Source of the DNA: Dehalococcoidales bacterium
GTDB taxonomy: Bacteria; Chloroflexota; Dehalococcoidia; Dehalococcoidales; RBG-16-60-22
NCBI GenBank assembly: GCA_036787005.1
Contig: DAIQQC010000001.1
Span: 12,879 to 68,377, forward strand
Length of the DNA stretch: 55,499 nucleotides
Reading direction: 5' to 3'
Below, piece after piece: positions 16,056-39,538 of this stretch. Below the pieces are notes generated by a model. The model saw nothing but the letters and a program-made list of their open reading frames with translations, was not told the origin of the DNA and ran no database searches. A program made the position numbers and the translations under genes. How positions within the stretch are numbered: the stretch's first letter is position 1; every line of letters begins with the position of its first letter.

Positions 16056-16646
16056 TTAGTGGCCCTCATGGGGAACGTCATACCTCGGGGTGAGTGCAAT
16101 AATCACCATGGTGATGGTTTTGTCTACCTTCTTGAAGTTGAGGGGGCAATGCGACATGCCTTTGGGGAAGAAGAGCACCGTGGGGGAGGTGATAACGTAC
16201 TTTTCCTGATCCTTACCCTGGCCGATATAAATTTCAATCTCGGCATCGAAATCCGAGATGTCCTGTGGGTCAGAGCCGAAGAACATCATGAATTCCTCAA
16301 AGTCGTGTGAGTGTGGAAAGGGAACCATATACACGGGCTTGGTGATGAAGCGATATATGAAGCGGCAATTGGCATTTTCGTAGTTTTCCCCTTGCAGGTC
16401 TATCCACGGCCCGTGTATCGGCCCCGGCTCTATTGGTAGCGGGGTCACATACTTAGCGTACTTTCCGGCTGTCGTCACTCCGTTAGTCTCCTCATTGGCC
16501 GAGGCCGTAGGTGCCTTCACCGGCACTGCTGCCGGTTCTGTTGTCGGCACGGGGGTCGCGGTACAGCCAGTGAAGATGCTTACTGATAGCGCCAGTACCA
16601 GAACCCCTGCCAGCAAAATACTTACCAACTTCTTTTTATTTTTCAT
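16056..16646 (-). CDS. exported lipoprotein carrying the recurrent small-cupin domain (paralog 1 of 4)
   Basis: Signal peptide plus lipobox (IFTGC), then a Thr/Pro/Ala-rich linker, then the domain starting GKYAKYV... with PHSHDFEEFMMFFGS and FFPKGMSHCPLNF, which match cupin motifs 1 and 2. Confidence 0.75.
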   Translation of the reverse strand: MKNKKKLVSILLAGVLVLALSVSIFTGCTATPVPTTEPAAVPVKAPTASANEETNGVTTAGKYAKYVTPLPIEPGPIHGPWIDLQGENYENANCRFIYRFITKPVYMVPFPHSHDFEEFMMFFGSDPQDISDFDAEIEIYIGQGKDQEKYVITSPTVLFFPKGMSHCPLNFKKVDKTITMVIIALTPRYDVPHEGH

Positions 16647-16905
16647 TTGATTCCTCTATTTGCCCTATTCTACTACTGTCCAGGCCCGATTAACAGAGCC
16701 AACAACGGACGCTGCGATAATGGCGCCAGTGACGGGATAATGGTGGCACGGGGAGACCAACAAAGAAAAGAATTAGAGAAGAAGTCCGCTGTTATTATTC
16801 CCGAAAAAACTCTAAAAATGCTCGAAGGTCTCTGGAGTCTACTTAACAAGCTCGCCAAGGATGAAATCGATCTTACAAAAGGAATGCGCAACACTAATGA
16901 TGATG

Positions 16906-17967
16906 TCAAACTCCAATGAACTGACCCCTATCGAGATAATTCATGACGAGTGTCGTGACAAACACCGACATGCTCGCCATCAGCATCACCGCCTGGTCAT
17001 TTTCCATTTTTAGCTCAAGGAGTCGGACGCGCTCCAGAAGTTCATCGACCAAGGCAATCAGAGTCTGCCGTTCTACACCTGTCCAAAAGTGAAGATCTCG
17101 AACCAGTTTTTGGCGATTGGCTCGAAGTATATCTACCGCGAGTTTTCCCTCTACTGCCGGAAAAAGTCTTTTTAAATCTTCGTTCAGAATTGGATGAAGG
17201 ACGACCCGGCAGCGTTTCTTCTGTTTCCTATACCAGGCATCCAGGGTCATCGTCATCTCTTCTATGGGCATATCTAGCTTACCTCTGGTTACGACCGCCT
17301 GTTTATTTACATACCTCCCCACCGTCTTGTCAACGTATAACAGTTTGGTCAAAGCAGGAGTGCCTCCGTACCGTTTCCGCCAATCTGAACCGGGGGTGAG
17401 CCACACTGAAAAGGTTTCAGCGAAATCATCGTCGGGATGCTTCTGAACATACCATCCCGGCATATGACGCACAAATCGGGCGCTAAAAGGTATTACCTTA
17501 TACTGTTCTTTGTAGGGCAAGGAGAATCGACCGAAGAGCTTGCGCCACTTTAGACTTTTGTAAAGGCGGTAGGCGTAGTTGAAGGCGTGACCGGCCTCGT
17601 GCCGGAGTATCATCATCACTTCCGCATCGGCTTCGGGTTCGATACCTGTCAGCCGGCCTTTGAGGCTACGCAGCTTAGAATCGACCATGTAGAATGGTAT
17701 GCCAATTACAGGGACTCGATTAGGGCAACCCCACCCCTCCGATAGATAGGTTTCTGGCCTGATAGAAATTCCAGCGCTTGCCAACTCCTGGTAGAGCTGG
17801 AGGACCAGCCTTTCAACTGGAGTACCATCAATCTTGAGAGCAAGTTCGTTAATTCTCTTTGATAGTAGTCCTTGCTCCGGGGTGTCTGCCATACTCATAC
17901 GTACCGCATCTCTGAATAAATGACAGGTCTTCGCTTTCCTGGTTTCATTATAGTCCTCTTTATTCAT
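16906..17967 (-). CDS. putative zinc metallopeptidase (Peptidase_Mx-like)
   Basis: HEAGH is an HExxH motif in MMILRHEAGHAFNYAY. A downstream DDDFAETFSVWL block is present. Confidence 0.6.
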   Translation of the reverse strand: MNKEDYNETRKAKTCHLFRDAVRMSMADTPEQGLLSKRINELALKIDGTPVERLVLQLYQELASAGISIRPETYLSEGWGCPNRVPVIGIPFYMVDSKLRSLKGRLTGIEPEADAEVMMILRHEAGHAFNYAYRLYKSLKWRKLFGRFSLPYKEQYKVIPFSARFVRHMPGWYVQKHPDDDFAETFSVWLTPGSDWRKRYGGTPALTKLLYVDKTVGRYVNKQAVVTRGKLDMPIEEMTMTLDAWYRKQKKRCRVVLHPILNEDLKRLFPAVEGKLAVDILRANRQKLVRDLHFWTGVERQTLIALVDELLERVRLLELKMENDQAVMLMASMSVFVTTLVMNYLDRGQFIGV

Positions 17968-18125
17968 TCAGAGAAAGCAAACTAAGGAATGAATTCCTGA
18001 ATCTTCAGGTCTTTTCTATTTTGGCAGAAATCAGGATATTGATTTAAAAGTGTAGAGTAAAGTACAATAAATTACGACCGCAGGTTAGTAAGCACAAGAG
18101 GCGATAGAAGAGAAAGGTGCGAACC

Positions 18126-19196
18126 ATGTTAAAGGCGAAAAACTCTCCCAAGGCCCAGACGGTGCTGGGTCCAATCGATGCCAGCTCGCTGGGTATTACC
18201 CTTCCTCACGAGCATATTTTCGCCGATGGCAGGAATTTTTTCTTCTCCGAGCCAGCCGACCCAGCCGAAAAAGCATTAGTTTACGCTCCGGTCACACTTG
18301 AAAACCTCGCCTGGGTGCGTGCCCATGCCCTGAGCAACGCGGACTGCCTGCAAATGCCAGGCGAGACGGTGCTGGTTAAAGAACTCCTGGTGTACAAGCA
18401 GGCCGGGGGCAATACCATCGTCGATGTCAGCACCAAACCCTTCGGCGGCGTCAATCCCGTAGGGCTCAAGCGGCTCGCTCAAGCCACCGGCCTTAACATT
18501 ATCATGGGCACTGGCTACTACCGGGGGCTACTGTATGCGCCGGAGGTAACTGCCATGACCGAAGAACAACTCCGGCAAGAAATCGTTCGGGACCTGACGG
18601 TGGGCGTCGGTGATACGGTAGTGCGCGCCGGCATCATCGGCGAGATAGGATTGACACCCACTCTGCGCGAGGATGAGCGCCGTTTGTTGCGCGCCTGTGC
18701 CGAAGCCCAGCGCGAGACGGGGGCTCCCATTACCATACACCCTCCCAGCCCAGACGATAGGCTGATACAGGAGGTATTGCGCATCCTGCGGGAAAACGGC
18801 GGCCGACCAGAAAAGACGGTCATTTGCCATATCGATATCATGGGATTCACGCCGGATACGGTCCGCCGCATCGCTGATACCGGCTGCTTTATCGAGTTCG
18901 ATACCTTCGGACACCTGTTCCCGCCCTTCGTGCTCGGGGAGAGCGTGATGGGCTTCCCGAGCGAGATGCAACGCATCAGTGCCGTGAGACAGCTTATCAG
19001 CGATGGCTACCTGAATCACATTCTCCTCTCCCACGATACCTTTCTTAAGGTGCTGCTGACTTCCTGGGGTGGGTTTGGCTACGGGCATATCTTACGTAAC
19101 ATCGTACCGGTAATGCTTCGGCAGGGCATCACAAAGTCGCAAATTCGAAAAATGATGGTGGAAAATCCCAGCCGTCTTTTATCTTTTATAATATAA
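18126..19196 (+). CDS. phosphotriesterase-family (PTE/PHP-like) hydrolase
   Basis: LGITLPHEHIF is the N-terminal metal motif. TIM-barrel pattern with ...PITIHP..., ...CHID... and LLSHD. The start could also be GTG at 18117. Confidence 0.8.
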   Translation: MLKAKNSPKAQTVLGPIDASSLGITLPHEHIFADGRNFFFSEPADPAEKALVYAPVTLENLAWVRAHALSNADCLQMPGETVLVKELLVYKQAGGNTIVDVSTKPFGGVNPVGLKRLAQATGLNIIMGTGYYRGLLYAPEVTAMTEEQLRQEIVRDLTVGVGDTVVRAGIIGEIGLTPTLREDERRLLRACAEAQRETGAPITIHPPSPDDRLIQEVLRILRENGGRPEKTVICHIDIMGFTPDTVRRIADTGCFIEFDTFGHLFPPFVLGESVMGFPSEMQRISAVRQLISDGYLNHILLSHDTFLKVLLTSWGGFGYGHILRNIVPVMLRQGITKSQIRKMMVENPSRLLSFII

Positions 19197-19246
19197 GGCT
19201 GTTACCGGCAGGTTGCCGGAATCATATTTAAGGAGGAAAAACAGCA

Positions 19247-19678
19247 ATGGGCAAGTATGACAAATATTTCATGACCGAAGCAAATCTCCCAGCGAGCAAA
19301 CAGGAGACCGCCGCTAAGAATGCCGGGATATATACCCATGTAGCTTGGCTCGATACCAATAAGATTCCGGGAGCGTTTTATACAGAGTGTGTCTGGTATT
19401 ATAAGCCCCGTAAAAGCTCTGTTGGTGCCCACACGCATGATTTTGATGAAGTAATCGCGTTTTTCGGCTCCAACCCGGACAATATCCATGACCTAGGGGG
19501 AGAGGTGGAGCTATGGTTGGGTGGTGAAAAGCATATCATCACCAGGAGTTGCCTGGTCTTTGTCCCGAAAGGGATGGAGCACTGCCCTTTATCCTTCAAC
19601 AAGGTTGAACGTCCCATCTTCCACTTTACGGCGGGCACAGGCGGCAAATACATATCGTCAATAGAGAGAGAGGACTGA
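19247..19678 (+). CDS. small cupin-domain protein, uncharacterised family (paralog 2 of 4)
   Basis: MGKYDKYF...GAHTHDFDEVIAFFGSNPDNIHDLGGEVELW...VFVPKGMEHCPLSF. AAGGAGG RBS. Confidence 0.75.
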   Translation: MGKYDKYFMTEANLPASKQETAAKNAGIYTHVAWLDTNKIPGAFYTECVWYYKPRKSSVGAHTHDFDEVIAFFGSNPDNIHDLGGEVELWLGGEKHIITRSCLVFVPKGMEHCPLSFNKVERPIFHFTAGTGGKYISSIERED

Positions 19679-19847
19679 TTTTGTTATTCACCCGGAGATA
19701 ATCAACGGATTAAATTTAATGATTGAAACCGGCAACAAAAAAATACGGCTGATGCGGTCCGATTGCTATGGTTGAGGGAGTCGCTGACAAGTAAGTCCAG
19801 TATTGAAAATGCCGACTTAAACAGTAGCGCCGATACCCTTGGGTACC

Positions 19848-20288
19848 TCAATCAGAGCTACCAACCCCCTTGGCAATATTGGTGCAGATGAATGTTTCGT
19901 AACTCTTGACCCCTATTATGCTGGACAGGATTTTCTTTACTATTCTGTCTATCTCTGCAGTAGAATGGCACCAGATAATAATCATGACATTGAATCTACC
20001 AGCAGTGACAGAAACGAATATGCACTCCGGTATCTCATTGATGATTTTAAGGTTGTTATCCAGCTCCGTATTGTCAACGTTAATACCGATTATTGCCTGC
20101 ATAGGAAAGCCAACCTTGCTTGGCTCTGGCAGGGCAATAATATAAATAATGCCTTCCACGATGAGCCGATGCACTCGGCGCCTGATAGTGGAAGAATCTA
20201 CGTGGAGCTCTTTAGATAACTCCTTACTATTTTTACGGCCATCTTTGACGAGCTGCTCAATTATCTGGTAATCCAACGCATCTATCAT
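19848..20288 (-). CDS. Lrp/AsnC family transcriptional regulator
   Basis: HTH_AsnC N-terminus (LDYQIIEQLVKDGRKNSKELSKELHVDSSTIRRRV) plus an AsnC_trans_reg C-terminus. Confidence 0.9.
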   Translation of the reverse strand: MIDALDYQIIEQLVKDGRKNSKELSKELHVDSSTIRRRVHRLIVEGIIYIIALPEPSKVGFPMQAIIGINVDNTELDNNLKIINEIPECIFVSVTAGRFNVMIIIWCHSTAEIDRIVKKILSSIIGVKSYETFICTNIAKGVGSSD

Positions 20289-20516
20289 CGCTAATACCCT
20301 CTGAAAGAATCACCGTGGTTCCAGCTTAAAAACTGCCTTCTGAACTAGATGCCAACCATTGCAGTTTTATCCTATACTCTCTTATCGTCCAAGTCAATGC
20401 TTTCAAGGATATTGATGGAAAGGGGGCAGGTGGGGTACAATCAGGTACGTCTTAGTAGTTGGCTGGGCTGTCATAGATAAAAATAGTATTCCTAGATAAA
20501 CAATAAGGATAATAGA

Positions 20517-21572
20517 ATGAAAAAGAGAAAAAGACTTGAGATTATCGAATGCAGCTGTACGATGTACGAAATAGGCAAACAGTACGGCTCCGTTCGCCGT
20601 AATAGTCTTATTACTTCAATTAACTCACTTTTTAAAGAATACATTACATTAAATAAAACCAGCAGAGAAGAAATAATCACGACAATGCGGAATTATCTTT
20701 CACTTGTGAAGAGTTTTGACCCTGAGTTGGTGGAGATGCTCCAAGGACAAGCGGAGGGGGCGGGGGTCAGCCTTGAAGAGGTTTTCCTGCTAAGATGCAA
20801 CTTCGAGCTCAGTTTTTATTACCAGCAAATGAAAACCTTCTGTACCTCTTTTGCAGTCACCGGGCAAGCCACCAGAGACGGTAAAACCATCATCGGGCAA
20901 AATTTTGACGCTACCTGCGGCAGGTCAATAGATCTGGTGAAAACAACGCATGTGGATGGGCTGAAACAGCTGTCACTGGTTTTCTGGGGAGCCTGTGAGC
21001 TGGTCTTGAACTCAGCGGGCCTGGGGATGGTCTTAAACGTCATCGTGAGCCCACCGGAGGAACAGTTATTCACTTTACCCGCCTGCTGTGTCATACCCAA
21101 AGCGATGAGACAGAGGCGAATCGGCGATGCGCTAGGGGTTTTCTGCGTAGCCGGGCGTAGCATGATGAATTACTGCCTGGCGAGTAAAGAGGGCGATATT
21201 ATCGGTATCGAAACAAAACCCGATGATTTTAACGTGCTGCAACCCGAAAGGGGCATCCTGGTCCATGCCAACCATTATCACACCGAGCGGTTCAAGAAGG
21301 GTGAACTGGTGTACCTAGGAGCTCCGAGCACCTATATCCGCGAACCACAGATAAAAAGGCTCATTGAAAAGCACTACGGGAACATCACCCTGGAGCAGAT
21401 GATGGAAATCATGTCCAACCATAATAATCATCCCAGGGGTATCTGTAATCATGCCCTGGAGGGGTCTACGGCGGAGACACTGGCTTCCGTAATTATGGTA
21501 CCCGAGGATAATGCGATGTACGTAACGGCCGGGCATCCCTGCAAGTATGAGTATGAAGAATACATATTATAG
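20517..21572 (+). CDS. C45-family peptidase / acyl-CoA:6-APA acyltransferase-like Ntn hydrolase
   Basis: 351 aa. FCTSFAVTG...GQNFD is the Ntn Cys region. It is a paralog of 33593-34654. Confidence 0.75.
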   Translation: MKKRKRLEIIECSCTMYEIGKQYGSVRRNSLITSINSLFKEYITLNKTSREEIITTMRNYLSLVKSFDPELVEMLQGQAEGAGVSLEEVFLLRCNFELSFYYQQMKTFCTSFAVTGQATRDGKTIIGQNFDATCGRSIDLVKTTHVDGLKQLSLVFWGACELVLNSAGLGMVLNVIVSPPEEQLFTLPACCVIPKAMRQRRIGDALGVFCVAGRSMMNYCLASKEGDIIGIETKPDDFNVLQPERGILVHANHYHTERFKKGELVYLGAPSTYIREPQIKRLIEKHYGNITLEQMMEIMSNHNNHPRGICNHALEGSTAETLASVIMVPEDNAMYVTAGHPCKYEYEEYIL

Positions 21573-21699
21573 CAGCTATTCAGGGCGTAAAAACATATCG
21601 ATAACAGAGCGCCGAAGGATTGCACGAAAAGATAGCGCAAATCGGTGAGCGGTAACGGTGAGCAGTAAAAATAAAAAAACGATAGTTAAAATGTACGGA

Positions 21700-22200
21700 C
21701 TACCTGGGGACAGGGAGCGGATTGCGGGGCTTTTCTTCAATTTGAGAGAGGTAGATATAGTTAGCCTTAGGATTAATACTTTTAGCCATATTCATACAGA
21801 TAAACGTCTCGCAGTTTTTTAAGCCCTTCAAGTTGCAAGTAATCTTCTGGACCAGTACGTGAATTTCCGCAGTAGAATGGCACCACAGGATAATCATGAC
21901 ATTGAATCCCCCCACAGTGACCGAAACAAACTTGCATTCCGGGATGGCACAGATAGTCTGAAGGGCGCCATTTAAATCCTTCTTGTCAATATCCAAACCG
22001 ATTATCGCCTGCACGGGGAAACCTGCCTTGAAAAACTCCGGGAGAGCAATAATATGAATCGCCCCGTCTTTGATAAGGTGACTCACTCTCCGCCTTATGG
22101 TTGAAGAATTAACGTTGAGCTTATTAGCCATTACCTTACTGGTAAGGCGCCCATTCTTTATCATTAATGAGATTAATTGACTATCCAGCTCATCTATCAT
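21700..22200 (-). CDS. Lrp/AsnC family transcriptional regulator (paralog)
   Basis: LDSQLISLMIKNGRLTSKVMANKLNVNSSTIRRRV. It shares the FNVMII(I/L)WCHSTAEI block with 19848-20288. Confidence 0.9.
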   Translation of the reverse strand: MIDELDSQLISLMIKNGRLTSKVMANKLNVNSSTIRRRVSHLIKDGAIHIIALPEFFKAGFPVQAIIGLDIDKKDLNGALQTICAIPECKFVSVTVGGFNVMIILWCHSTAEIHVLVQKITCNLKGLKNCETFICMNMAKSINPKANYIYLSQIEEKPRNPLPVPR

Positions 22201-22380
22201 GATAATGACTCCATCTAACCGACAGCTTTAACTAACACCGCCACGAATAATTTCATGTTTAATATTCTGTGTTCGAGCGAGAATAATATATATCACTTTA
22301 AGCCCTTTGTCAACTCTCTTCCGAACTGAGGTTGCCGCATCTTTCCCGAAGCGGTCACCCGTTTTTATCGTCTTACCTCA

Positions 22381-28738: not shown

Positions 28739-30589
28739 ATGGCTGGAGGCTATATGGGAAGACTCCTGTGGGTAAATCTTTCCACGGGAGAAATAAAAGT
28801 TGAGCAACTTGATGAGAGTCTTTACCGGGATTTTATCGGTGGCTATGGCCTGGGCGCCAGAGTACTTTACAGTCGCCAGAAAGGCGGTGTGGATGCGCTG
28901 GGACCGGATAACATCCTGGGTCTGCTTACGGGGCCGCTTACCGGAACGCCGGCTATCAGCGGCACCAGGTATACAGTTGTGGGAAAGTCGCCGCTGACGG
29001 GGGGTTGGGGAGATGCTAACTCCGGAGGCCATTTCGGCCCCAAGCTCAAGTTCGCCGGCTATGACGGTGTGTTCTTTACCGGCATCGCGGATAAACCGGT
29101 CTACCTGCTTTTGAACAACGGTAAAGCCGAGATAAAAGATGCCAGGGAATATTGGGGTAAAGACACGTATTACACGGAGGACACCCTAAAGTCGGAATAT
29201 GGCAGCGCCGCTGAGGTTGCCTGTATTGGTCCGGCCGGAGAAAAGCTCTCCCGTGTCGCCTGCATTATCACCCGTAAAGGAGATGCCGCCGCACGCTCGG
29301 GGCTGGGAGCGGTGATGGGTTCGAAGAAACTGAAGGCGGTGGTTGCCATGGGCGACCAGAAAGTGCCCCTGGCCGATAGCGAAGCTGCCGACAGGCTGAG
29401 AAAAGAGCACTGGGAATATTTAAAGATGGGGATGGGTGGCGGAATGAACATGTACGGCACCTCCGGGCATGGAGATACATCAGCCCTGAGCGGTGATACC
29501 CCTATTAAAAACTGGGGAGGCATCGGGGTTATCGAACTGCCTGATGTCACCGGTCTCAACAAAGATAAGATGATTGCCAACCTGGACCACCGGACAGGCT
29601 GCTGGCAATGCCTGGCGGCCTGCAAGGCTGTCCTTAAAAACGGCATCCAGTATCCCTATCCAGCCGGGACTAAAAGACTGGAGTACGAAACTATTGGTGC
29701 TTTTGGGGCGAATTGTAAGAACACTAATGCCGAGTCCATAATTATGGCCAGTCATCTCTGCAACAGCTACGGCATGGATACCATATCCGCCGGAAGCATC
29801 ATCGCCTTCGCTCTGGAACTTTATGAGCACGGCATTATCACTAAAAAGGATACCGGTGGCATCAACCTCAAATGGGGCGATCCCGATGCCCTCGTCGCCA
29901 TGACGGAGAAGCTGGTAAAACGCGAAGCAATCGGAGATATCCTCGCCGAGGGAGTTAAAAACGCTGCTGAGAAAATCGGCAAAGGCGCCGAGCAATACGC
30001 CGTACATATCGGCGGGCAGGAGCTGGGCATGCACGACCCCAAGCTCGGCGGGCGCCCCTTTCAATTCCCCCGCCACCCGACGGGTACCGTGTACAAGATG
30101 GATGCCACACCGGGCCGCCATACCGGAGCATTCGGGCCTGACGGCTTTGAAAGGCACCTCAATAACTCCATGGGCACCTGTCTATTCTTGTTCCTTTCTC
30201 CTTTGCCTAAAGACCCAACAACACCCCTCCCCTTCGCCGCCAGCATGATGAAGGCCGTGACCGGCTGGGACCGTTCTCTGGATGAGTTGCTTGAAGCCGG
30301 TGAAAGGATTGGTACTATGCGGCATGTCTTTACCCTCCGCGAAGGCATCAATCCCCGGGAGCGCTTCGTGCATAACAGGATAATCGGGCGGCCACCGCAG
30401 AAAGATGGCCCGCTAGCCGGCGTATCGCTGGATATCGAGGAGGAAACTGCCTGGAACCTGGGTGCCCTGGACTGGGACCGGGTGACGACCAAACCCAGCC
30501 GGAAGAAACTGTTAAAACTAGGACTGGATGACGTGGCAGCAGAGCTCTGGCCGCCGCCAGTGGCTCCTGGGTTCGATCCGTCGAGATGA
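28739..30589 (+). CDS. aldehyde:ferredoxin oxidoreductase family (tungstopterin-type) enzyme
   Basis: 616 aa. The N-terminus GRLLWVNLSTGEIKVEQLDESLYRDFIGGYGLGARVLY and AOR_N/AOR_C blocks are typical of the AOR family. AGGAG RBS. Confidence 0.85.
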   Translation: MAGGYMGRLLWVNLSTGEIKVEQLDESLYRDFIGGYGLGARVLYSRQKGGVDALGPDNILGLLTGPLTGTPAISGTRYTVVGKSPLTGGWGDANSGGHFGPKLKFAGYDGVFFTGIADKPVYLLLNNGKAEIKDAREYWGKDTYYTEDTLKSEYGSAAEVACIGPAGEKLSRVACIITRKGDAAARSGLGAVMGSKKLKAVVAMGDQKVPLADSEAADRLRKEHWEYLKMGMGGGMNMYGTSGHGDTSALSGDTPIKNWGGIGVIELPDVTGLNKDKMIANLDHRTGCWQCLAACKAVLKNGIQYPYPAGTKRLEYETIGAFGANCKNTNAESIIMASHLCNSYGMDTISAGSIIAFALELYEHGIITKKDTGGINLKWGDPDALVAMTEKLVKREAIGDILAEGVKNAAEKIGKGAEQYAVHIGGQELGMHDPKLGGRPFQFPRHPTGTVYKMDATPGRHTGAFGPDGFERHLNNSMGTCLFLFLSPLPKDPTTPLPFAASMMKAVTGWDRSLDELLEAGERIGTMRHVFTLREGINPRERFVHNRIIGRPPQKDGPLAGVSLDIEEETAWNLGALDWDRVTTKPSRKKLLKLGLDDVAAELWPPPVAPGFDPSR

Positions 30590-30670: not shown

Positions 30671-31594
30671 GTGCCAAAAGGGATAATTGTTTACCTCTCC
30701 TACACCGGAAACACCAGGCAGATTGCCCGGGCAATATACAGAGGTATGAATCCGCTCATGGACAGGTGCGGTATCGTCAAGCTGCGCCAGACCAACCCGG
30801 CGGACCTGGTGGGTTATGACCTGATAGGTATCGGCAGCCCGGTGCGGCTTGGCAAAATGCCCGTCGAGCTCAAGGATTTTATCGTAAAAATGGATTCGCT
30901 GCAAGGAACGCACTGCTTCGTTTTCAATACCCATGCGGCACTGCCGGTCGGTTTCATGAGAGAGTGCGTGACCGCTTTGAAAGATAAAGGACTGGTCGTT
31001 ATCGGTTTTAAAAACTGGTACAGCGCCGTATATCTCCCCTATGTTCCCAAGCCATATTTCACCGATGGTCATCCGGATGAAATCGACCTCAAAGAAGCCG
31101 AGCAATTCGGGCGGGAAATGGTGCTATACAGTCGCAAAATACATCAAGGCGAGAGCGACCTAATCCAGCGCCTGCCTGAAGGTAAAGAGTACGATAGGAT
31201 TTACGGCGCTCAAATGACGGGCGCCCTACCCGTGGATGTGATGAAAGCACGCGCCCAGGGATTCAGCATAAACATGGAAAAGTGCACCCGCTGCAACTAT
31301 TGCGTGGAACTCTGCCCCACGAACAGTATCGATTTCTCGGTAAACCCGCCAGTTTTTAAGAGATGCGACCAGTGCTGGATGTGCGAGCAGACCTGCCCGG
31401 AGGGCGCTATATCATTCAACTACCCGCCGCTCCTCAAATCCCACAACGTTATCGTGGAGCAGAGGTTTGTCCCGGCCCTCAAGCTCGCGGAAGAACTAGG
31501 CCGTTTCCGGCCGTTGGTGAAGCCTGAAGACATAGGGTGGGAGACACCTCTATTTATTACTAACAAGCCGCCGCGTTTTAAAATTATGCAATAA
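30671..31594 (+). CDS. flavodoxin-like domain fused to a 2x[4Fe-4S] ferredoxin domain (EFR1-type)
   Basis: IIVYLSYTGNTRQIA is a flavodoxin-type N-terminus. CTRCNYCVELCP and CDQCWMCEQTCP are the cluster motifs. GTG start follows AAGGGGG. Confidence 0.75.
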   Translation: MPKGIIVYLSYTGNTRQIARAIYRGMNPLMDRCGIVKLRQTNPADLVGYDLIGIGSPVRLGKMPVELKDFIVKMDSLQGTHCFVFNTHAALPVGFMRECVTALKDKGLVVIGFKNWYSAVYLPYVPKPYFTDGHPDEIDLKEAEQFGREMVLYSRKIHQGESDLIQRLPEGKEYDRIYGAQMTGALPVDVMKARAQGFSINMEKCTRCNYCVELCPTNSIDFSVNPPVFKRCDQCWMCEQTCPEGAISFNYPPLLKSHNVIVEQRFVPALKLAEELGRFRPLVKPEDIGWETPLFITNKPPRFKIMQ

Positions 31595-31669
31595 CCCGAG
31601 GGCTTTATTCACGTTGAACTAATGATATCGCCTTCAAAAAAATACCCAATAAGAGAAGGGAGATGTTAT

Positions 31670-32293
31670 ATGGCTAAAGAAAACTTGGAGCAGAAAGTTA
31701 AAGACCTGGAGGCAAAGCTTACGGCCGTAACCGATATACAGGAGATAGAAAAACTGCAGAGGATATACGGTTTTTACCTGGATAACCGTATGTGGGATGA
31801 CGTTGTGGATTTATTTTCCGATAATACCGAATCGCTGGAGATAAGCGATAGCGGCGTGTACCTGGGGAAAGCCGGGGTGAGGAGATTTTTCAAGGAATTC
31901 ATGGGGAGAGGCGGCTTGCCGCCCATGCCCGGAGCCCTAGGGACACACATGCAGCACCAGGGAGTAGTCAACCTAGACCCGGGGGGTGTTACCGCCAAGG
32001 GAAGATGGCAATGCGTCATCTGGCTGGCTACGTCCCTGAATAATAAGCTATCGGCAGGGCTGGGTCACGGCGTCTACGAGGATGAATACATTAAAGAAAA
32101 TAAAACATGGAAATTCAAAAAAATGCATTTCTACTTGGTGTTCCGGACCCTGCTGGATGAAGGATGGGTGAAGACACCGGTGGTGCTTTCCATGGCTAAG
32201 GGAAGCGCTGATTTACCCACTACCGTCTATAAACCTTACCCGTCCGGTTATGTTATCCCCTTCCACTTTAAGAACCCCGTAACCGGGAAGTAG
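31670..32293 (+). CDS. SnoaL-like / NTF2-family protein
   Basis: LEAKLTAVTDIQEIEKLQRIYGFYLDNRMWDDVVDLFSDN is the canonical SnoaL_4 opening. ATG at 31670 follows AGAAGGGAG. Confidence 0.7.
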   Translation: MAKENLEQKVKDLEAKLTAVTDIQEIEKLQRIYGFYLDNRMWDDVVDLFSDNTESLEISDSGVYLGKAGVRRFFKEFMGRGGLPPMPGALGTHMQHQGVVNLDPGGVTAKGRWQCVIWLATSLNNKLSAGLGHGVYEDEYIKENKTWKFKKMHFYLVFRTLLDEGWVKTPVVLSMAKGSADLPTTVYKPYPSGYVIPFHFKNPVTGK

Positions 32294-32307
32294 AGAGGAG
32301 AGAAAAA

Positions 32308-33138: not shown

Positions 33139-33546
33139 TTAATCCGGGTAGGCGGCGATAGCGTCTACTTCAACCTTGAAATTTTTGGAGGCAAGCCCCT
33201 CTACGACAGCCAGGGTTCCGGTGCTGGGCTTTTCTTTTAAACCGGGCGCATATTTATAGCATTCATCATGGAACTTGCGAATCACCTTAACCGGGTCGGC
33301 GGCACCTTTTTTCATGTAAATGGTATGCTTTACCATGGCGCCGATATTTAAGCCAAGCTCTTCCAAGGCGGCGTTCATCTTACGCACCACAACCTCTATC
33401 TGGACAAAAATATCATCATCCACGTCACCACCCTTGCTGAAATCCATTGCCTCCGTGCCGGAAAGAAAGATAATTTTTCCTACCGATAAAGTCTTGCTGA
33501 TGTCCATCGACATCTCACCGTATAAAGTACGCTTAAAGTTATCCAT
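33139..33546 (-). CDS. RidA/YjgF/L-PSP family protein
   Basis: 135 aa with IFLSGT... and a C-terminal VEVDAIAA pattern typical of the family. Confidence 0.75.
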   Translation of the reverse strand: MDNFKRTLYGEMSMDISKTLSVGKIIFLSGTEAMDFSKGGDVDDDIFVQIEVVVRKMNAALEELGLNIGAMVKHTIYMKKGAADPVKVIRKFHDECYKYAPGLKEKPSTGTLAVVEGLASKNFKVEVDAIAAYPD

Positions 33547-33592
33547 GCTGTTCCTCCTTTATCTTAGTTATTCCGGGCTCCTGTATCTATTT

Positions 33593-34654
33593 TCATAGCT
33601 TGTATTCTTCAAATTCATACCGGCAAGGCTGTCCCCAGGCAACGTACATCACCTTATCCTCGGGGATCATAATTACCGAAGCCAGCGTCTCTCCCCGGGG
33701 CATCTGGGGGTTCATATGGGCACATATCGAGTTGGGGTAGTTATTATGGTCAGCCATGAACTCCATCATCAACTCAACGGTAAGGTCTCCATAGTGCCTT
33801 TCCATGAGTCTTTTTATCCGCTGCACCCGAATGTAGCTGTCACCTTCCATCAAACCAAAGGTGCCGTCACCCCTTTTCAGTCTTTCCGTGAGGTAATGGT
33901 TGGAGTGAACGAACATATCGGCTTCAGGCTGCAGCACGTTAAAGTCATCGGGCCTGGTCTCAATAGCGATAATGTCCCCTTCCGCGCTAGCGAAGGTATA
34001 ATTCAAGATACTACGCCCCGAGGCGCAAACGACCCCTAGGGCGTCGCCGATTCTCTTCTGCCGCATCGCCCGCAAGATGACACAGCAACAGGGCACGTTA
34101 AGGGCCTGGTCTTTAACCGGACTTAACATTACGTTCAGAGTCATTGCTACTCCCGCGGAGTTCAGCAACACCTCGCAGGCGCCGCCAAAGACAAGCGATA
34201 GCTGTTCCAGATTGTCATTGTACTTTTTCCTGACCAGATCTATCGACAAACCGGCATTGAGGTCGAAGTTCTGGCCGATGATTGTCTTACCGCCCCTTGT
34301 CACCTTACCCGTAGCGGCAAAAGACGTGCAAAGACAGGTTACACGCTGGTAATATATGCCTAACTCAAACCGGCACATCAGCATTAAAATCTCATCAAAC
34401 GGGACGCCGGCACCTTCCGCCTGTCCCTTCATCATCTCAATCAGCTCCGGGTCAAAACGCTCTACCGAGGGCAAATATTTACGGGCATTGGCCAAGATTT
34501 CCGCCTTGCTGACTTTCCGCACCATGCCGATGTTAACGATAAGCTCATTAATCGATTTGATAATATTATTCCGGCAAGCTACGCCGTACTGCTTCCCGAT
34601 TTCATAAGGAGTGCCACTGCACTCATGGACCGGTAACTTCCTGCTATCTTTCAT
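33593..34654 (-). CDS. C45-family peptidase / acyltransferase-like Ntn hydrolase (paralog)
   Basis: LCTSFAATG...GQNFD. It is collinear with 20517-21572 over its full length. ATG at 34654 is preferred over TTG at 34669. Confidence 0.75.
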   Translation of the reverse strand: MKDSRKLPVHECSGTPYEIGKQYGVACRNNIIKSINELIVNIGMVRKVSKAEILANARKYLPSVERFDPELIEMMKGQAEGAGVPFDEILMLMCRFELGIYYQRVTCLCTSFAATGKVTRGGKTIIGQNFDLNAGLSIDLVRKKYNDNLEQLSLVFGGACEVLLNSAGVAMTLNVMLSPVKDQALNVPCCCVILRAMRQKRIGDALGVVCASGRSILNYTFASAEGDIIAIETRPDDFNVLQPEADMFVHSNHYLTERLKRGDGTFGLMEGDSYIRVQRIKRLMERHYGDLTVELMMEFMADHNNYPNSICAHMNPQMPRGETLASVIMIPEDKVMYVAWGQPCRYEFEEYKL

Positions 34655-34696
34655 TTGCCTTCCCTTCAATGCCTGGCGTCTTGTTACTTGGCATCT

Positions 34697-36433
34697 TTAC
34701 ATGGCATCGTAGACAATTTTTCCGCCGGCAACAGTCATCAATGTCCGTATATCCGTTATTTTATGCGGCTCCACATTCAATATATCCTCGTCAAGAATAC
34801 AGAAATCAGCCACTTTACCGGGTTCTATAGAGCCTTTGACCTGTTCCATGTGGTCCTGCCAGGCTCCTTCTATGGTATACATCCGGATAGCCTGTTCGCG
34901 GCTAATACGCTGGCCAGAGTCAGCAGACAAGTCTCCTGGTATAGACTCCCTTAAAACGGCTGCCTGTATCCCCTGTTTCCAGTCCGGGATAGTCACAGGA
35001 GCATCAGAGCCGCCGGAAACATGTACGCCTGCCTCCATCAGTGTTTTTAAGGGCAGCAGCTTCGTGGCACGTTCTTTGCCAACGGAAAAAGCTATAGGAC
35101 CGGACATGACATTTGCCAGCACCGGCTGTACCGAAACACCGATATGATATTCGGCCATGCGTCTGGCGCTTTTCCCTGGAACGAAGTCACCATGAATGAT
35201 GTAATGGCGGAGGTCCTTTGGCTGCTCCTGCTCTGCCCTGACAAAACCATCAATACAGGCATCGATGGACCTATCGCCGGTAGCATGAACACCTATTTGA
35301 AAACCGAGTTTGTGGGCATGGGCGACAATATTCCTCAGCTCCTGGCAACGCTGCTCGTCCGTCTGCCCTGAAAAAATAAGAGCCCCGTTACCGCCACCCG
35401 TATAATCTTCATACATCCAGGCGGTTTTCATCGGCGGTATGCCGTCGGCAAAAAGCTTGATTCCGGCTATCCTCAGCCATTTATTGCCAAAACCAGTGTG
35501 TATCCCGATTTCCGGCAAACCCTTGAGCAGTTCCTCAGGATGGTAGCGGCCGTAGGGAGTAAAGAGCAGCAAGATGCTAACCCTTACCGTGAGTTTGCCC
35601 TCATTATTCAGGTCGTTATAGATGCTGATACATTCAGAATCCCATAGCCCCCCATAAACCAGAGCTCCAGCCGGGCCCAGACTCGGCTCGGTGATGCTGG
35701 TTATCCCCAGAGTATTAAGTTCACGCATGGCGGTGAGTAGCGCCTGTTTCTTTTGCTCCCTGGTCAAGAGAGGCACAACGCCGGTCACCAGATCGTCCGT
35801 GAGCATCCCCCGCACTAAACCGGTAAACTCGCCGGTGACCGGGTCTTTGACAACCTCACCACCACGGGCAAATGGGGTGTCTTTATGGATTCCTGCCAGG
35901 TTCCAGGCCCTGGTGTTAAATAGAACGATACGTTCGCCGCGAAAGGGAATAGCCCCGATGTAGACAGGGTTATCCGGAGATATCCGGTCTAAATCCCAGC
36001 GTGTGGGGTACCGGCCCGAGTTTTGCTGACACTCGTTAAGCAATACCGGGTCGAGTCCCATACCTCGTATCCACTCGCCGGGCTTGGCCGACTTTGCTTT
36101 CTCACCTATGGTATTAACAAGGTCGTCGATGGATTTTACCGCCGGGTAACTGACATCGAGCACTACCGGAGGTCTTGTACCACCAAAAAGAGAGGCATGT
36201 ATATGAGCATCGTTAATGCCCGGAAGCACGGTACTGCCTTGAAGGTCGATTTTTCGGGTCTTTTTGCCTGCCAGGGCTATAATCTCTTCATGGCTGCCAA
36301 CCGCCAGGATTATACCGTCTTTAACCGCTATGGCGCGGGCAATAGAAAAATTCTTATCTACCGTGACGACTTTTCCGTTGAAAACAATCAAATCCGCTAG
36401 CGCCGATTCTAGCGGCGACCTGTTTGACGCCAT
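34697..36433 (-). CDS. amidohydrolase-3 (YtcJ-like) metal-dependent hydrolase, cytoplasmic paralog
   Basis: DLIVFNGKVVTVD...PGINDAHIH...HATGD. ATG at 36433 follows GAGAGGTG. No signal peptide. Confidence 0.85.
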   Translation of the reverse strand: MASNRSPLESALADLIVFNGKVVTVDKNFSIARAIAVKDGIILAVGSHEEIIALAGKKTRKIDLQGSTVLPGINDAHIHASLFGGTRPPVVLDVSYPAVKSIDDLVNTIGEKAKSAKPGEWIRGMGLDPVLLNECQQNSGRYPTRWDLDRISPDNPVYIGAIPFRGERIVLFNTRAWNLAGIHKDTPFARGGEVVKDPVTGEFTGLVRGMLTDDLVTGVVPLLTREQKKQALLTAMRELNTLGITSITEPSLGPAGALVYGGLWDSECISIYNDLNNEGKLTVRVSILLLFTPYGRYHPEELLKGLPEIGIHTGFGNKWLRIAGIKLFADGIPPMKTAWMYEDYTGGGNGALIFSGQTDEQRCQELRNIVAHAHKLGFQIGVHATGDRSIDACIDGFVRAEQEQPKDLRHYIIHGDFVPGKSARRMAEYHIGVSVQPVLANVMSGPIAFSVGKERATKLLPLKTLMEAGVHVSGGSDAPVTIPDWKQGIQAAVLRESIPGDLSADSGQRISREQAIRMYTIEGAWQDHMEQVKGSIEPGKVADFCILDEDILNVEPHKITDIRTLMTVAGGKIVYDAM

Positions 36434-36508
36434 GAATATCACCTCTCAGGTTGGACCGAAAAGACCTGTTGTTTTCCAGAGATAACGCCCCATCAGATTC
36501 TAAAAATT

Positions 36509-36578
36509 AAATTACACTCACTCTCCGTTCATTGTCAATTGAAATAAGCATATTGGGGATAAAATTGCACATATTGTG
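36509..36578 (-). promoter_or_regulatory. operator CACAATATGTGCAATTT, N25, TTGACA, N18, TAATTT promoter for the 36433-start operon
   Basis: On the minus strand the motif is 36562-36578, TTGACA is 36533-36538 and the -10 is 36509-36514. Confidence 0.55.
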
Positions 36579-36699
36579 TTATTCAGGGAACGAGGCATAT
36601 ATTTCAGGTAACGCAAGTACGTATCACTATTCCACCCAAATTATTAGGATTTGCCTTCATTTACATGACCGGCGGACATACAAGTTCCATCGCCTGCTT

Positions 36700-36767
36700 C
36701 ACAATATGTGCAATTTGTCTAGCGTTACGCTCATTTTTCTTGACGGTAAGAAGACGATAATTATATT
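36700..36767 (+). promoter_or_regulatory. operator CACAATATGTGCAATTT, N25, TTGACG, N16, TATATT promoter for the 36842-start operon
   Basis: The motif at 36700-36716 is the exact reverse complement of 36562-36578. TTGACG is 36740-36745 and TATATT is 36762-36767. Confidence 0.55.
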
Positions 36768-36841
36768 TTATTAATTAACTCTTATCCTGCTGGAGATAGA
36801 TGTTCTCTTAATAAATACTCTAAGCACAGAGGCAATGTATC

Positions 36842-38560
36842 ATGAAGATAGACATGCGCTATGCCGACACCGTTTTCTTGAATGGGAAAGTCATTACAGT
36901 AGACGGGGATTTTTCAATCTGCCAGGCGGTAGCCACCAAGGACGGTATCATCGTAGCCACGGGCAGAAATAACAACGTCAGGTCTCTGACAGGTAAAAAC
37001 ACGCGGGTTATCGACCTTAAAGGCAAGACGATGCTCCCCGGTATTAACGACTGCCACACACATGCGGCTTTATTCGGTGGTACGAGGCCGCCGCTGATGC
37101 TTGACCTCACCTATCCGACGGTAAAATCAATCAAAGACATCGTCAAGTTAGTTGCGGAAAGAGTTAAAACGACCCACCCCGGGGATTGGATAAGAGGGTT
37201 CGGCTGGGACGAAGGGTATTTAGAGGAATGCCTGCAGGACAGGACACACCACCCCACGCGATGGGATCTGGATGTCATATCCCCGGACAACCCTGTCTGC
37301 CTGGGCGACTTTTCCGTGCACTCCCTCTGGCTGAACAACAAGGCGCTGGAACTGGCGGGTATCACCACGGACACGCCAGTCCCGGTGGGCGGAGACATTG
37401 TTAAAGACCCCGAGACAGGCAAGGTCACGGGGATAATCAACGAGCTTGCCGCCCAGGGAATGGTCATGAAGGTCATACCACCGTGGACCAGGGCGCAGAA
37501 GAGATCTGCGATAGTTACCGCCATTAAAATTTTCAACGAGCTGGGCATTACCAGTATTACCGAGGGCGCGCTGGGGCCTGGAGGCGTGGGCTACCAGGGG
37601 GGACTGCTCGACTCAGAGTGCATCGGGGTCTATAACGACCTCTATGATGAAGGCAAGCTAGACATCCGCGTGAATATATTCTATCTTTTCGGCGAGTACG
37701 GAGCTTGCTCCTATAAAGATTTCCAACAGATTATCCCCGCACTGGGCATACACTCTTGCTTTGGCAACGATTGGATAAAGATCGGCGGAGTGAAGATATT
37801 CGCCGACGGCATCCCTCCGAACAAGACCGCCTGGGTAAGTGAGGAGTACGCTGGAGGAGGGCGGGGCAGCCTGGTGGTGCCGGGTAACACGGAGCAGGAA
37901 CACCGTGAAGAACTTGACAGGATGATAAAGCTGGCTCATCATCATAACTTCCAGGTAGGCGTCCACGCCATCGGTGACATGGCGATAGCCGCCACCGTCG
38001 ACAGCTTCATCGAAGCTGAAAAGAATGAACCCAAAGGTTTGAGGCACTACATTGTACATGCCGACTTCATCTCGCCCGAATACGCTGATAAGGCGGCCAA
38101 AAACAATATCGCCATCTGTGCCCAGCCCGGTATCCAGTGGACCCTTGCCGACGCTAGCTCCTATCTAGTCGGCATCGAGCGGGCAGCCCAGCAGTGGCCG
38201 TACAAGACCATTCTTGATGCCGGCGCGCGTCTCACCGGCAGCTCCGATACGCCCTGCATCGCCCCCCACTGGCTGCAGGGTATTCAGTCTGCCCTATTAA
38301 GGGAGTCTAAAGCCACCGGCAAGGTAAACAATCCTGCCCAACGCATCAGCCGGGAACAGGTTATCCGCATGTACACGATATCTGCTGCCTGGCAGGACCA
38401 CATGGAAAACCGGAAGGGCTCTATCGAACCGGGGAAGCTGGCCGACCTGTGCGTCTTGGGAGAGGATATTCTAGGCGTGGAGGCGCACAGCATAAAGGAC
38501 ATTCCTATAATGATGACGGTGGTCGGCGGGCAGGTAGTCTATGAAAGTGATGATTTTTAG
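36842..38560 (+). CDS. amidohydrolase-3 (YtcJ-like) metal-dependent hydrolase, cytoplasmic paralog
   Basis: DTVFLNGKVITVD...PGINDCHTH...HAIGD. It is collinear with 34697-36433 and 14106-15923. Confidence 0.85.
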   Translation: MKIDMRYADTVFLNGKVITVDGDFSICQAVATKDGIIVATGRNNNVRSLTGKNTRVIDLKGKTMLPGINDCHTHAALFGGTRPPLMLDLTYPTVKSIKDIVKLVAERVKTTHPGDWIRGFGWDEGYLEECLQDRTHHPTRWDLDVISPDNPVCLGDFSVHSLWLNNKALELAGITTDTPVPVGGDIVKDPETGKVTGIINELAAQGMVMKVIPPWTRAQKRSAIVTAIKIFNELGITSITEGALGPGGVGYQGGLLDSECIGVYNDLYDEGKLDIRVNIFYLFGEYGACSYKDFQQIIPALGIHSCFGNDWIKIGGVKIFADGIPPNKTAWVSEEYAGGGRGSLVVPGNTEQEHREELDRMIKLAHHHNFQVGVHAIGDMAIAATVDSFIEAEKNEPKGLRHYIVHADFISPEYADKAAKNNIAICAQPGIQWTLADASSYLVGIERAAQQWPYKTILDAGARLTGSSDTPCIAPHWLQGIQSALLRESKATGKVNNPAQRISREQVIRMYTISAAWQDHMENRKGSIEPGKLADLCVLGEDILGVEAHSIKDIPIMMTVVGGQVVYESDDF

Positions 38561-38638
38561 GTCGGTGAGAGCCGGAGAGGCAGGCTAGCTCATCTCGTAG
38601 CGGTTAGACAGGCTACAACAAATAAAAAAGGGGCGAAT

Positions 38639-38986
38639 ATGGCAAAAGTAAAAATTACCGTGGTCAAGACATCAAATTATAACGAAATGTTCGGAAAAAA
38701 TCTTCCAGCGAACATCGACAAAGCCATGCTTAAGCCGCAATGCCACGTCTTCAAGACCGGGCAAGAGTTCATTTTAAGCACCGATAGTGACGCGCCTCCC
38801 TCGCAGAGCTGGGAAAACTGTCCGGCAGGCTTTTGTCCCTGGGCTTATGCTGATATCCAGAGGGATATCACCCATATACTCTTCGGCGGCTCTTATCCGT
38901 GGATAAAGGATAATGGAGTGACTATCTCATGCTGCACGGACGGTTTAAGACCGGTTATCTTTAAGATTGAGAGAATTGCCGATTGA
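38639..38986 (+). CDS. small Cys-containing protein, TIGR04076-like
   Basis: 115 aa. CPAGFCPWAYADIQ and a later CC pair resemble the TIGR04076 family. This assignment rests on memory of the family pattern only. Confidence 0.5.
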   Translation: MAKVKITVVKTSNYNEMFGKNLPANIDKAMLKPQCHVFKTGQEFILSTDSDAPPSQSWENCPAGFCPWAYADIQRDITHILFGGSYPWIKDNGVTISCCTDGLRPVIFKIERIAD

Positions 38987-39091
38987 CCACCGGAGGGGGA
39001 AGCGTCTCACGGGCCGATTACGGCATTTCCTGACTGATAATGTTGTCCGCGTTTTTCTGCAAAGTCGGATATACTAGAAAGGATTGAAAAT

Positions 39092-39538
39092 ATGAGTACA
39101 CGTAAATACAGCAAATACCTCATTTCTAATCCCAAGCTTGTTCGCGAACTGGTATATCATGACCTTAAAAACGTATCAGGCTTTACCTTTCCCGATGAAA
39201 TATACCTGGACAAAGATATCCTCGAGGAAGCCAACCACTGGCTGGATATCACCTGGATATGGGACAAGACCACTCCCCGGGAGCTGCCCGGCGCCCATTC
39301 CCATAAATTTGACGAGATTGTCCTCTTGGTTGGCTCCAACGCCAGGAACCTGAGAGATTTGGGCGGGGAGGTGGAGTGGGGTATGGGCGAAGGCAAAGAC
39401 GCAGAGACCTACCTGATTACCGCCACCACCCTGATTTACGTCCCCAAAGGGCTGGTTCATGGACCCCTTGTTTTCAAGAGGGTGGATAGACCCATATTGA
39501 ATATCGCTATCGGCATCAATACCGGAAAGTACGCCTGA
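39092..39538 (+). CDS. small cupin-domain protein, uncharacterised family (paralog 4 of 4)
   Basis: MSTRKYSKYLISNPK...GAHSHKFDEIVLLVGSNARNLRDLGGEVEW...IYVPKGLVHGPLVF. Confidence 0.75.
   Translation: MSTRKYSKYLISNPKLVRELVYHDLKNVSGFTFPDEIYLDKDILEEANHWLDITWIWDKTTPRELPGAHSHKFDEIVLLVGSNARNLRDLGGEVEWGMGEGKDAETYLITATTLIYVPKGLVHGPLVFKRVDRPILNIAIGINTGKYA

Follow-up and report, generated by a model that had tools for sequence, protein, structure and literature searches.

Are the four small cupin genes that lie close together in one stretch of bacterial DNA dedicated partners of the hydrolase-type enzymes encoded beside them, or members of a more general family that happen to stand there? The stretch, hereafter the window, comprises 55,499 nucleotides from a Dehalococcoidales bacterium (GenBank assembly GCA_036787005.1, contig DAIQQC010000001.1, positions 12,879 to 68,377). 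An earlier examination of its letters without database searches, here called the sequence-only reading, had described the four genes as paralogs of one unnamed family, each wired to a neighbouring hydrolase or isomerase-like gene. All four open reading frames (ORFs) that it had listed were recovered, and we refer to them as c1 to c4:

16056-16646, minus strand: c1, cupin paralog of 196 aa, with the cupin domain at residues ~58-196
19247-19678, plus strand: c2, cupin paralog of 143 aa
32308-32757, plus strand: c3, cupin paralog of 149 aa, which closes the AOR operon as its last gene
39092-39538, plus strand: c4, cupin paralog of 148 aa, the copy modelled with AlphaFold 2 (AF2)

An unnamed family of metal-binding cupins

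The four copies form one homologous family, as had been proposed. Pairwise BLASTP alignments span the whole domain at 27-40% identity, with E values from 9e-9 to 7e-30 (for a database size of 1e9 residues), and a hidden Markov model (HMM) of the family matched exactly c1-c4 in the window, with no fifth member. Because similarity at the DNA level is nearly nil and each copy has separate orthologues elsewhere at 81-96% identity, c1-c4 are, as judged by sequence comparison, ancient and diverged paralogs of four subfamilies, with no recent duplicates among them.

The alignment shows K-Y-x-K-Y, H-x-H-x3-E, E-x-E, P-x-G-x2-H-x-P, and a C-terminal Tyr to be common to all four copies. The canonical cupin motif 1, G-x5-H-x-H-x3,4-E-x6-G, is found in c4 as GAHSHKFDEIVLLVGS, with equivalents in c1-c3. 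As for motif 2, G-x5-P-x-G-x2-H-x3-N, all four carry the P-x-G-x2-H portion, and the terminal N is replaced within an H-(C/G)-P-L ending. The sequence-only reading had described these elements somewhat too uniformly. Its HxHxxxE core of motif 1 occurs in every copy, but the spacing behind it is E-x4-F-G-S (or E-x5-G-S) and not E-x5-F-G-S; the FGS position is occupied by VGS in c4 and by VAT in c3, which is also the copy with the variant HKHDQNE, in which the ligands H, H, and E are kept. The acidic turn DLGGEVE, said to be shared, is exact in c2 and c4 only, and becomes KLGGEIE in c3 and DFDAEIE in c1. The supposedly N-terminal KYxKY is present in all four, but in c1 it lies at residues 61-65 and not at the N-terminus of the precursor, being preceded by a 57-residue leader made of a lipoprotein signal peptide and a Pro/Thr-rich linker. 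Motif 2 was described correctly as PxGxxH(C/G)P and is present in all four copies, with HGP in place of HCP in c4.

The predicted metal ligands in c4 are H69, H71, E75, and H123. This HHEH set is kept in 154 of 164 single-domain members of the family, and in its two-domain members (bicupins) it is kept in 116 of 168 N-terminal and 131 of 168 C-terminal domains. Across 500 domains, the H, H, and E of motif 1 are conserved at 88-94%, and across the family the P and H of motif 2 reach 98% and 96%, respectively. The AF2 model of c4 is an eight-stranded cupin barrel with a mean predicted local distance difference test score (pLDDT) of 84.4 and a predicted template-modelling score (pTM) of 0.78. A Foldseek search of the PDB with this model gave 231 matches at E <= 1e-3, of which the 50 listed have the cupin fold without exception; model and matches agree on a small beta-barrel of the jelly-roll type. 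These best 50 are generic cupins with a template-modelling (TM) score of ~0.5 and 10-18% identity, and oxalate oxidase, archaeal phosphomannose/phosphoglucose isomerases, HppE, MarH, and Ni-quercetinase are among the matches listed. With both motifs and the fold in place, c1-c4 are members of the cupin superfamily.

The sequence-only reading had been unable to give the family a name, and the profile and structure searches that it called for do not supply one either: they lead to a generic cupin barrel and to no well-characterised family with a known function. Pfam and NCBIfam give no match above cut-off for any of c1-c4. The closest approach is Pfam Cupin_2 (PF07883), which c2 matches at 22.6 bits, short of the gathering cut-off of 27.2; c1, c3, and c4 have no Cupin_2 match in Pfam at E <= 10, and the NCBIfam search of c1-c4 returned nothing meaningful. 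Among 59 single-domain relatives, 24 match Cupin_2 weakly and none matches any other family; most bicupin relatives likewise match Cupin_2 weakly. The source databases name members 'hypothetical protein' or give generic COG or cupin labels, and a search of the accessible library found no paper linking cupins of such kind to Dehalococcoidia. We conclude that c1-c4 very probably represent an uncharacterised metal-binding cupin family. Its fold is a very familiar one, and the family is a sizeable unnamed subfamily within the cupins.

The extent of this subfamily was estimated in two ways. A profile of the four paralogs retrieved 1,361 clusters at 90% identity. When 1.84 billion representatives were searched exhaustively with an HMM, 1,536 clusters formed at 50% identity passed E <= 1e-3, and 976 passed E <= 1e-10. 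The retrieved proteins divide about equally into single cupins of 140-160 aa and bicupins of ~290 aa. Domain fusions were considered as a functional clue and set aside: the longest members are bicupins with linkers only, and an apparent 856-aa 'fusion' in one locus (L082) is a spurious ORF of high guanine-plus-cytosine (GC) content. With each species represented by a single genome, relatives are encoded at 271 loci. Of these, the 80 best come mostly from uncultured Dehalococcoidales or Dehalococcoidaceae metagenome-assembled genomes (MAGs), the remaining hosts being some Acidobacteriota, Thermodesulfobacteriota/Deltaproteobacteria, Chloroflexia, and Anaerolineales; the locus set was drawn with a c2/c4-centred alignment, which biases the 80 loci toward the c2 subfamily. 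The closest locus, L006, belongs to a Dehalococcoidaceae MAG with a c2 orthologue 95% identical to that of the window and with the same local gene order, and from this agreement the window, too, was assigned to an organism of that kind.

Multiplication of the gene is common. After genes were re-called with the family genes fixed first, 184 members were counted in 98 loci, of which 45 hold at least two and none more than six. Tandem arrays of head-to-tail single-domain genes contain six copies in L055 and five each in L054 and L066, and occur in L060 and L043 as well. The five- and six-copy arrays sit between a small lipoprotein gene with a ComM-like gene on one side and rplA on the other. The lipoprotein gene is conserved, encodes 166-171 aa, and precedes the arrays in L054, L055, L059, L060, and L062; the ComM-like gene lies upstream of the arrays in L055, L060, and L062; and rplA is at most three genes from the arrays in L043, L055, and L060, with no metabolic genes adjoining.

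Gene neighbours across the family and in the window

The sequence-only reading held that the cupin is always the small partner of a hydrolase, and it proposed to check co-occurrence with Amidohydro_3 genes across genomes. This part of the proposal fails. Among 70 species-representative loci with a called member, none has an Amidohydro_3 gene within +-6 kb (gene calls being crude), and taken as a whole the family shows no enrichment beside hydrolases. Hydrolases account for about 5% of the 75 non-redundant same-strand immediate neighbours outside the window that were classified with Pfam:

SDR: 9 of the 75 same-strand neighbours
MFS: 8
DUF169: 3
PEP-utilisers (PEP, phosphoenolpyruvate): 2
C45/AAT: 2
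Amidohydro_3: 1

The PTE-family hydrolase gene of L006 is also among the 75, its Pfam match standing outside the part of the table given here. All hydrolase-type neighbours in this set come from close relatives of the window, and the commonest same-strand neighbours are SDR dehydrogenases and MFS transporters. The conserved adjacency to Amidohydro_3, PTE, or C45 genes that an obligate hydrolase partner would display is absent family-wide and occurs only in the narrow c1 lineage described below. On balance, the family is probably not a dedicated hydrolase partner.

The association with SDR genes is more general. An SDR gene directly adjoins a family member in 16 of the 70 loci, and SDRs are enriched within two genes of a member as compared with positions farther away (odds ratio 6.6, p = 5e-6, not corrected for shared ancestry). 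Other recurrent neighbours that make or consume carbonyls are AOR, Fe-ADH, Zn-ADH, class III aminotransferases, and PEP-utilising kinases. One module, SDR/PPDK_N (346 aa)/PEP-utiliser (~571 aa)/cupin/SDR, recurs in six loci (L024, L028, L037, L040, L049, and L051). Its two kinase-like genes resemble split phenylphosphate-synthase-type dikinases, and by analogy this likeness would hint that a hydroxyl or enol group is phosphorylated. Neighbour clusters 1, 13, and 29 of the first gene calls were rejected as antisense or low-complexity ORF artefacts.

Inside the window, the neighbours are of the kinds that the sequence-only reading had named, namely Amidohydro_3 beside c1 and c4, PTE beside c2, and SnoaL_4 beside c3. 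These genes, and others that bear on the history of the copies, are the following:

14106-15998, minus strand: YtcJ-type Amidohydro_3, downstream of c1; likely true start at ATG 15926, with the lipoprotein signal LMTSC
18117-19196, plus strand: PTE-family (phosphotriesterase/lactonase-like) hydrolase, 50 bp upstream of c2
28739-30589, plus strand: AOR, upstream of c3
30671-31594, plus strand: flavodoxin/4Fe-4S fusion, between AOR and SnoaL_4
31622-32293, plus strand: SnoaL_4, directly before c3
36842-38560, plus strand: Amidohydro_3, upstream of c4
38639-38986, plus strand: TIGR04076, a small Cys-rich protein of an uncharacterised family, between Amidohydro_3 and c4
20517-21572, plus strand: C45/AAT Ntn-hydrolase, part of the cupin/MFS/AAT cluster conserved in L007-L009 and L093
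33593-34669, minus strand: second C45/AAT, on the strand opposite to c3 and c4
34697-36442, minus strand: third Amidohydro_3, on the strand opposite to c3 and c4
12535-13797, plus strand: displaced former neighbours of c4, a C45/AAT 3' fragment and an SDR, 82-87% identical to the genes that follow c4 in L087

The neighbour genes lie on the same strand as their cupin with gaps of 14 to ~130 bp, and c4 is parted from its Amidohydro_3 gene by the TIGR04076 gene. The proposed sharing of transcription units is predicted from strand and close spacing only; promoter and terminator consensus scans of the window remained at background level. A search for riboswitches and other RNAs upstream of the cupin genes returned two tRNAs only, and no repeats or mobile cassettes were found around the cupin genes beyond the similarity of the paralogous coding sequences. 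Between c1 and the PTE gene, positions 16906-17967 on the minus strand encode a 352-aa protein with no Pfam or NCBIfam match and with an HEAGH motif of the HExxH type, possibly a zinc metallopeptidase; a homologue of this gene adjoins PTE in L006 too.

The hydrolase link does survive for the c1 branch, and more loosely for the catabolic island of its lineage, although not for the family at large. The N-terminus of c1, LALSVSIFTGC, matches the lipobox pattern (IFTGC), is conserved in orthologues, and provides the signal peptide and Cys-terminated lipobox of a lipoprotein; the Amidohydro_3 partner carries a matching lipobox of its own, LLISLPLMTSC. The pair recurs in L086, L090, L091, and L092 with differing flanks, and from these signals and this recurrence it looks like a genuine exported two-gene module. 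A metagenome scan with the c1 alignment found three loci only, all 93-96% identical, and the known examples of the pair, at this level of identity, are effectively one narrow lineage.

Elsewhere, c2 and c3 share one cluster with the order (Opp ABC)/AOR/Fld-Fer4/SnoaL_4/c3/MFS/c2/MFS/AAT, found in L007-L009 and L093, so that the AOR/Fld-Fer4/SnoaL_4 context of c3 is kept in all four loci. An unannotated 146-aa gene between the second MFS gene and AAT in L093 is probably a further family member. The PTE gene is less constant: it lies nearby on the other strand in L007-L009, DUF169 takes that place in L093, and direct adjacency of PTE and c2 is common to the window and L006 only.

The surroundings of c4 have been rearranged. 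A c4 orthologue with 81% identity, in L087, stands in the order Amidohydro_3/SBP/ABC x4/SDR/c4/AAT/SDR, and Amidohydro_3 lies 5-7 kb from the c4 orthologues of both L087 and L094. The AAT 3' fragment and the SDR gene of the window lie 25 kb from c4, and because they were displaced to 12535-13797, the present adjacency of amidohydrolase and c4 is secondary and due to rearrangement. More distant c4 orthologues adjoin branched-chain-type ABC transporters and MttB, a PemK toxin gene, or Fe-S/molybdopterin genes, and in a further locus c4 is clustered together with genes for a permease, other cupins, an SDR, and MoaF. The C45/AAT fragment itself retains residues 221-354 with one frameshift near 12753, and its counterparts follow the c4 orthologue in L087-L089. 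In L002, the MttB-family gene directly after the c4 orthologue (10503-11978) is broken into two parts with products of 327 and 158 aa, and this break could reflect an in-frame amber (pyrrolysine) codon or a frameshift.

The remaining gene content describes a catabolic locus. The window holds three Amidohydro_3 genes, two C45 genes, one PTE gene, Opp-type transport, and Lrp regulators, and its AOR, Fe-S proteins, corrinoid and pterin methyltransferase components, and radical SAM gene fit an anaerobe. The segment 1340-11845 encodes a radical SAM protein, a B12-binding corrinoid protein, a methyltransferase, ZIP, an MBL-fold protein, FmdE, and a FecCD-type ABC importer, and fits a corrinoid-dependent anaerobe. 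Farther on, six tandem paralogs of 444-473 aa with 44-56% mutual identity occupy 44521-52946 on the minus strand. Five have a C-terminal URO-D/MtaA-like domain in Pfam, the sixth (45949-47289) is assigned by its 46-53% identity, and the N-terminal ~240 aa of these paralogs have no Pfam match. A pterin-binding (MtrH-like) gene adjoins them at 43535-44395 (minus strand), and a plus-strand ORF at 45898-47595 is probably a spurious antisense ORF. The GC content of this block is 56-59%, against 43-52% elsewhere in the window. A large serine recombinase gene (41839-43395, plus strand) ends in or against tRNA-Met(CAT) (43352-43426, minus strand) exactly at the GC shift, and this junction looks like the boundary of an integrated island.

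Proposed chemistry and its alternatives

We used the structural and neighbourhood data to formulate a model of what the family may do. Each protein would be a single beta-barrel of ~15 kDa that holds one divalent metal through His-x-His-x3-Glu and the motif-2 His. Family members would act as stand-alone small enzymes recruited to many different catabolic clusters, without being obligate hydrolase subunits, and c1 would be exported as a lipoprotein together with the neighbouring amidohydrolase. Their chemistry would be an O2-independent, metal-assisted proton transfer (epimerisation, isomerisation, or tautomerisation) by way of a metal-stabilised enolate or enediolate, with small carbonyls such as 2-oxo acids, hydroxy-ketones, or aldehydes as substrates. 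In the window, hydrolysis of amide and lactone bonds in imported compounds would supply such intermediates, and the products would then be passed to AOR or to dehydrogenases (SDRs). As a whole, this is the best explanation we can offer, and we hold it tentatively, at somewhat less than an even chance of being right; isomerase- or epimerase-type chemistry, taken by itself, is possible if doubtful. A metal-assisted proton-transfer enzyme is favoured because the main hosts are anaerobic, because the only relative of known function at the sequence level is an epimerase (MarH, discussed below), and because the commonest neighbours handle carbonyls.

Several considerations weigh against this explanation. 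The similarity to MarH is marginal, confined to the generic cupin core, and without the MarH gene context. Adjacency to SDR genes is compatible with many chemistries, and the test behind it is phylogenetically non-independent and draws on loci biased to the c2 subfamily. No metabolic clue comes from the five- and six-copy arrays, which neighbour ribosomal and ComM genes. The conserved acidic residues E93, E95, and E105 (82-85%) would suit a lyase, a hydrolase, or a protein that binds cationic ligands equally well. The Acidobacteriota and Chloroflexia hosts are perhaps aerobes, in which case O2 chemistry may be conceivable in part of the family.

The proposal that started this work, a dedicated accessory or second-step enzyme acting on the product of the adjoining hydrolase (amidohydrolase, PTE, or SnoaL-like), is unlikely to apply. 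Each copy in the window does share its strand with a gene of this kind, 14-130 bp or one small gene away; c1 and its Amidohydro_3 partner stay together in four other contigs with different flanks, both with lipoprotein signals; and Amidohydro_3 recurs at some distance from two c4 orthologues. Yet these links do not extend beyond the surroundings of the window: the 70 loci contain no nearby Amidohydro_3, at most ~4 of the 75 same-strand neighbours are hydrolases and all belong to near relatives of the window, the c1 orthologues amount to one lineage, the c4 adjacency stems from rearrangement, MFS genes stand on either side of c2 in L007-L009 and L093, and no hydrolase lies near the arrays, which reach six copies. 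We also regard as improbable, to a similar degree, a non-redox bond-cleaving enzyme with a 3His-1Glu centre, that is, a decarboxylase, a lyase of the dimethylsulfoniopropionate (DMSP) lyase type, or an aminohydrolase like ureidoglycine aminohydrolase or KdgF. The 3His-1Glu metal site supports bond-cleaving chemistries in known cupins, a strongly conserved Glu near the motifs could be the general base, and the contexts are catabolic with transporters; set against this, no such family appeared in the PDB profile searches up to E = 10, in Pfam, or in NCBIfam, and the best Foldseek matches are scattered over unrelated cupin functions.

A non-catalytic role, as a metal buffer or chaperone for binuclear metallohydrolases or as the binding partner of a transporter, would suit the metal-dependent hydrolases next to the window copies, the ZIP zinc transporter at 4987-5727, the predicted co-export of c1 with its amidohydrolase, the frequency of MFS and ABC transporters among the neighbours, and a copy number and array formation that are unusual for a single-pathway enzyme. 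It is nevertheless quite improbable, since most members lie away from any metallohydrolase gene, a catalytic-type cupin site conserved in full, together with a conserved pocket, is more typically a mark of enzymes, and His-rich tails are absent except for the short C-terminus of c1. Still less credible is an O2-dependent cupin dioxygenase (quercetinase-, gentisate-, or Dke1-like). Some members carry the label 'quercetin dioxygenase-like cupin' from the Joint Genome Institute (JGI), the Foldseek matches include Ni-quercetinase, oxalate oxidase, and HppE, and a few hosts (Acidobacteriota, Chloroflexia) may respire O2; however, those labels are generic COG names and the likeness stays at the level of the fold (TM ~0.5, 10-18% identity). 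O2-dependent chemistry is unlikely because the main hosts are anaerobes, and the window too is anaerobic in character (AOR, corrinoid methyltransferase systems).

The metal-assisted proton-transfer explanation can be extended to the clade as a whole, although we think it unlikely that the extension holds in full. It would describe an enzyme family that is specific to the anaerobic Dehalococcoidales and has expanded heavily there, made of O2-independent epimerases or isomerases (or lyases) that depend on a metal and have diversified in specificity. They would allow these sediment bacteria to funnel carbonyls of varied stereochemistry and structure, derived from amides, lactones, and amines, into AOR- and SDR-linked fermentation, with the exported c1 branch acting extracellularly alongside the lipoprotein amidohydrolase. 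As it stands, the family is one more uncharacterised cupin subfamily, and obligatory hydrolase wiring fails across it. If characterised, it would give a name and a chemistry to more than 1,000 'hypothetical' proteins. Its genes are among the most duplicated small genes of uncultured Dehalococcoidales, a group that is important for the turnover of carbon in anoxic sediments. Three leads are the most useful: the SDR association, the strong tendency to form arrays and bicupins, and the exported c1 pair, a compact two-gene lipoprotein module open to testing.

Comparison with known cupin systems

The best solved relative at the sequence level is PDB entry 6j4b (profile E 1e-3 to 8e-3, 17-26% identity), identified as MarH by its Foldseek description. 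Together with a close homologue, 7eqk, which is probably StnK3, it accounts for all solved sequence-profile relatives in the PDB (E 1e-3 to 1e-1). An hhalign comparison with the MarH core gave a probability of 96% over 53 columns spanning both cupin motifs, and MarH is also among the top Foldseek matches of the c4 model. MarH and StnK3 resemble the window family in being single small cupin domains of ~125-150 aa with HxHxxDE and a P-x-G-x-E-H-C motif 2. Their function is known from published work: both are cupin epimerases of beta-methyl-indolepyruvate, MarH epimerises beside a carbonyl group independently of O2, and the genes belong to a cassette with an S-adenosylmethionine-dependent C-methyltransferase and a pyridoxal phosphate-dependent aminotransferase (PMC4742848). 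In contrast to c1-c4, MarH is without the N-terminal KYxKY segment, the GGEVE strand, and the C-terminal VDRP...Y motifs, and its context is a methyltransferase/aminotransferase cassette of Streptomyces secondary metabolism that is absent beside c1-c4 and from the related loci. With borderline E values and a match limited to the core motifs, the copies do not clearly belong to the MarH/StnK3 group.

The likeness to Cupin_2 (PF07883) consists of the same fold and the same two-motif metal site, and Cupin_2 carries no functional meaning. Two further systems were considered and rejected. Cupin DMSP lyases (DddK/L/Q/W) contributed no Ddd chain to the PDB profile matches, which were followed to E = 10 in one search and to E = 1 in another, or to the best 50 Foldseek matches. 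Dihydrophloroglucinol cyclohydrolase (DPGC), considered for the BKACE, 3HCDH, and SDR genes near some members, belongs to the isatin-hydrolase 'cyclase' family and is not a cupin.

A looser parallel concerns gene context. In KduI/KduD, RmlC/RmlD, and the cupin-type sugar isomerases, a small cupin stands beside an SDR and acts on a keto intermediate. The window family may be analogous to such SDR-linked cupin isomerases, given that SDRs are its commonest neighbours; it differs from KduI and RmlC in having no sequence relationship to them in any search and no sugar-nucleotide or uronate genes nearby. Moreover, RmlC-type enzymes are metal-independent, whereas the full metal site is kept in the window family.

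Germins, oxalate oxidases, and oxalate decarboxylases differ in sequence and setting, with 13-15% identity and no sequence-level match, O2-dependent Mn chemistry, and an occurrence in plants, fungi, and Bacillus. The resemblance lies in architecture: the top Foldseek match is the germin/oxalate oxidase structure 2ete (E = 1.5e-5, TM 0.50), the 3His-1Glu ligands are the same, and single-domain and bicupin forms exist in both.

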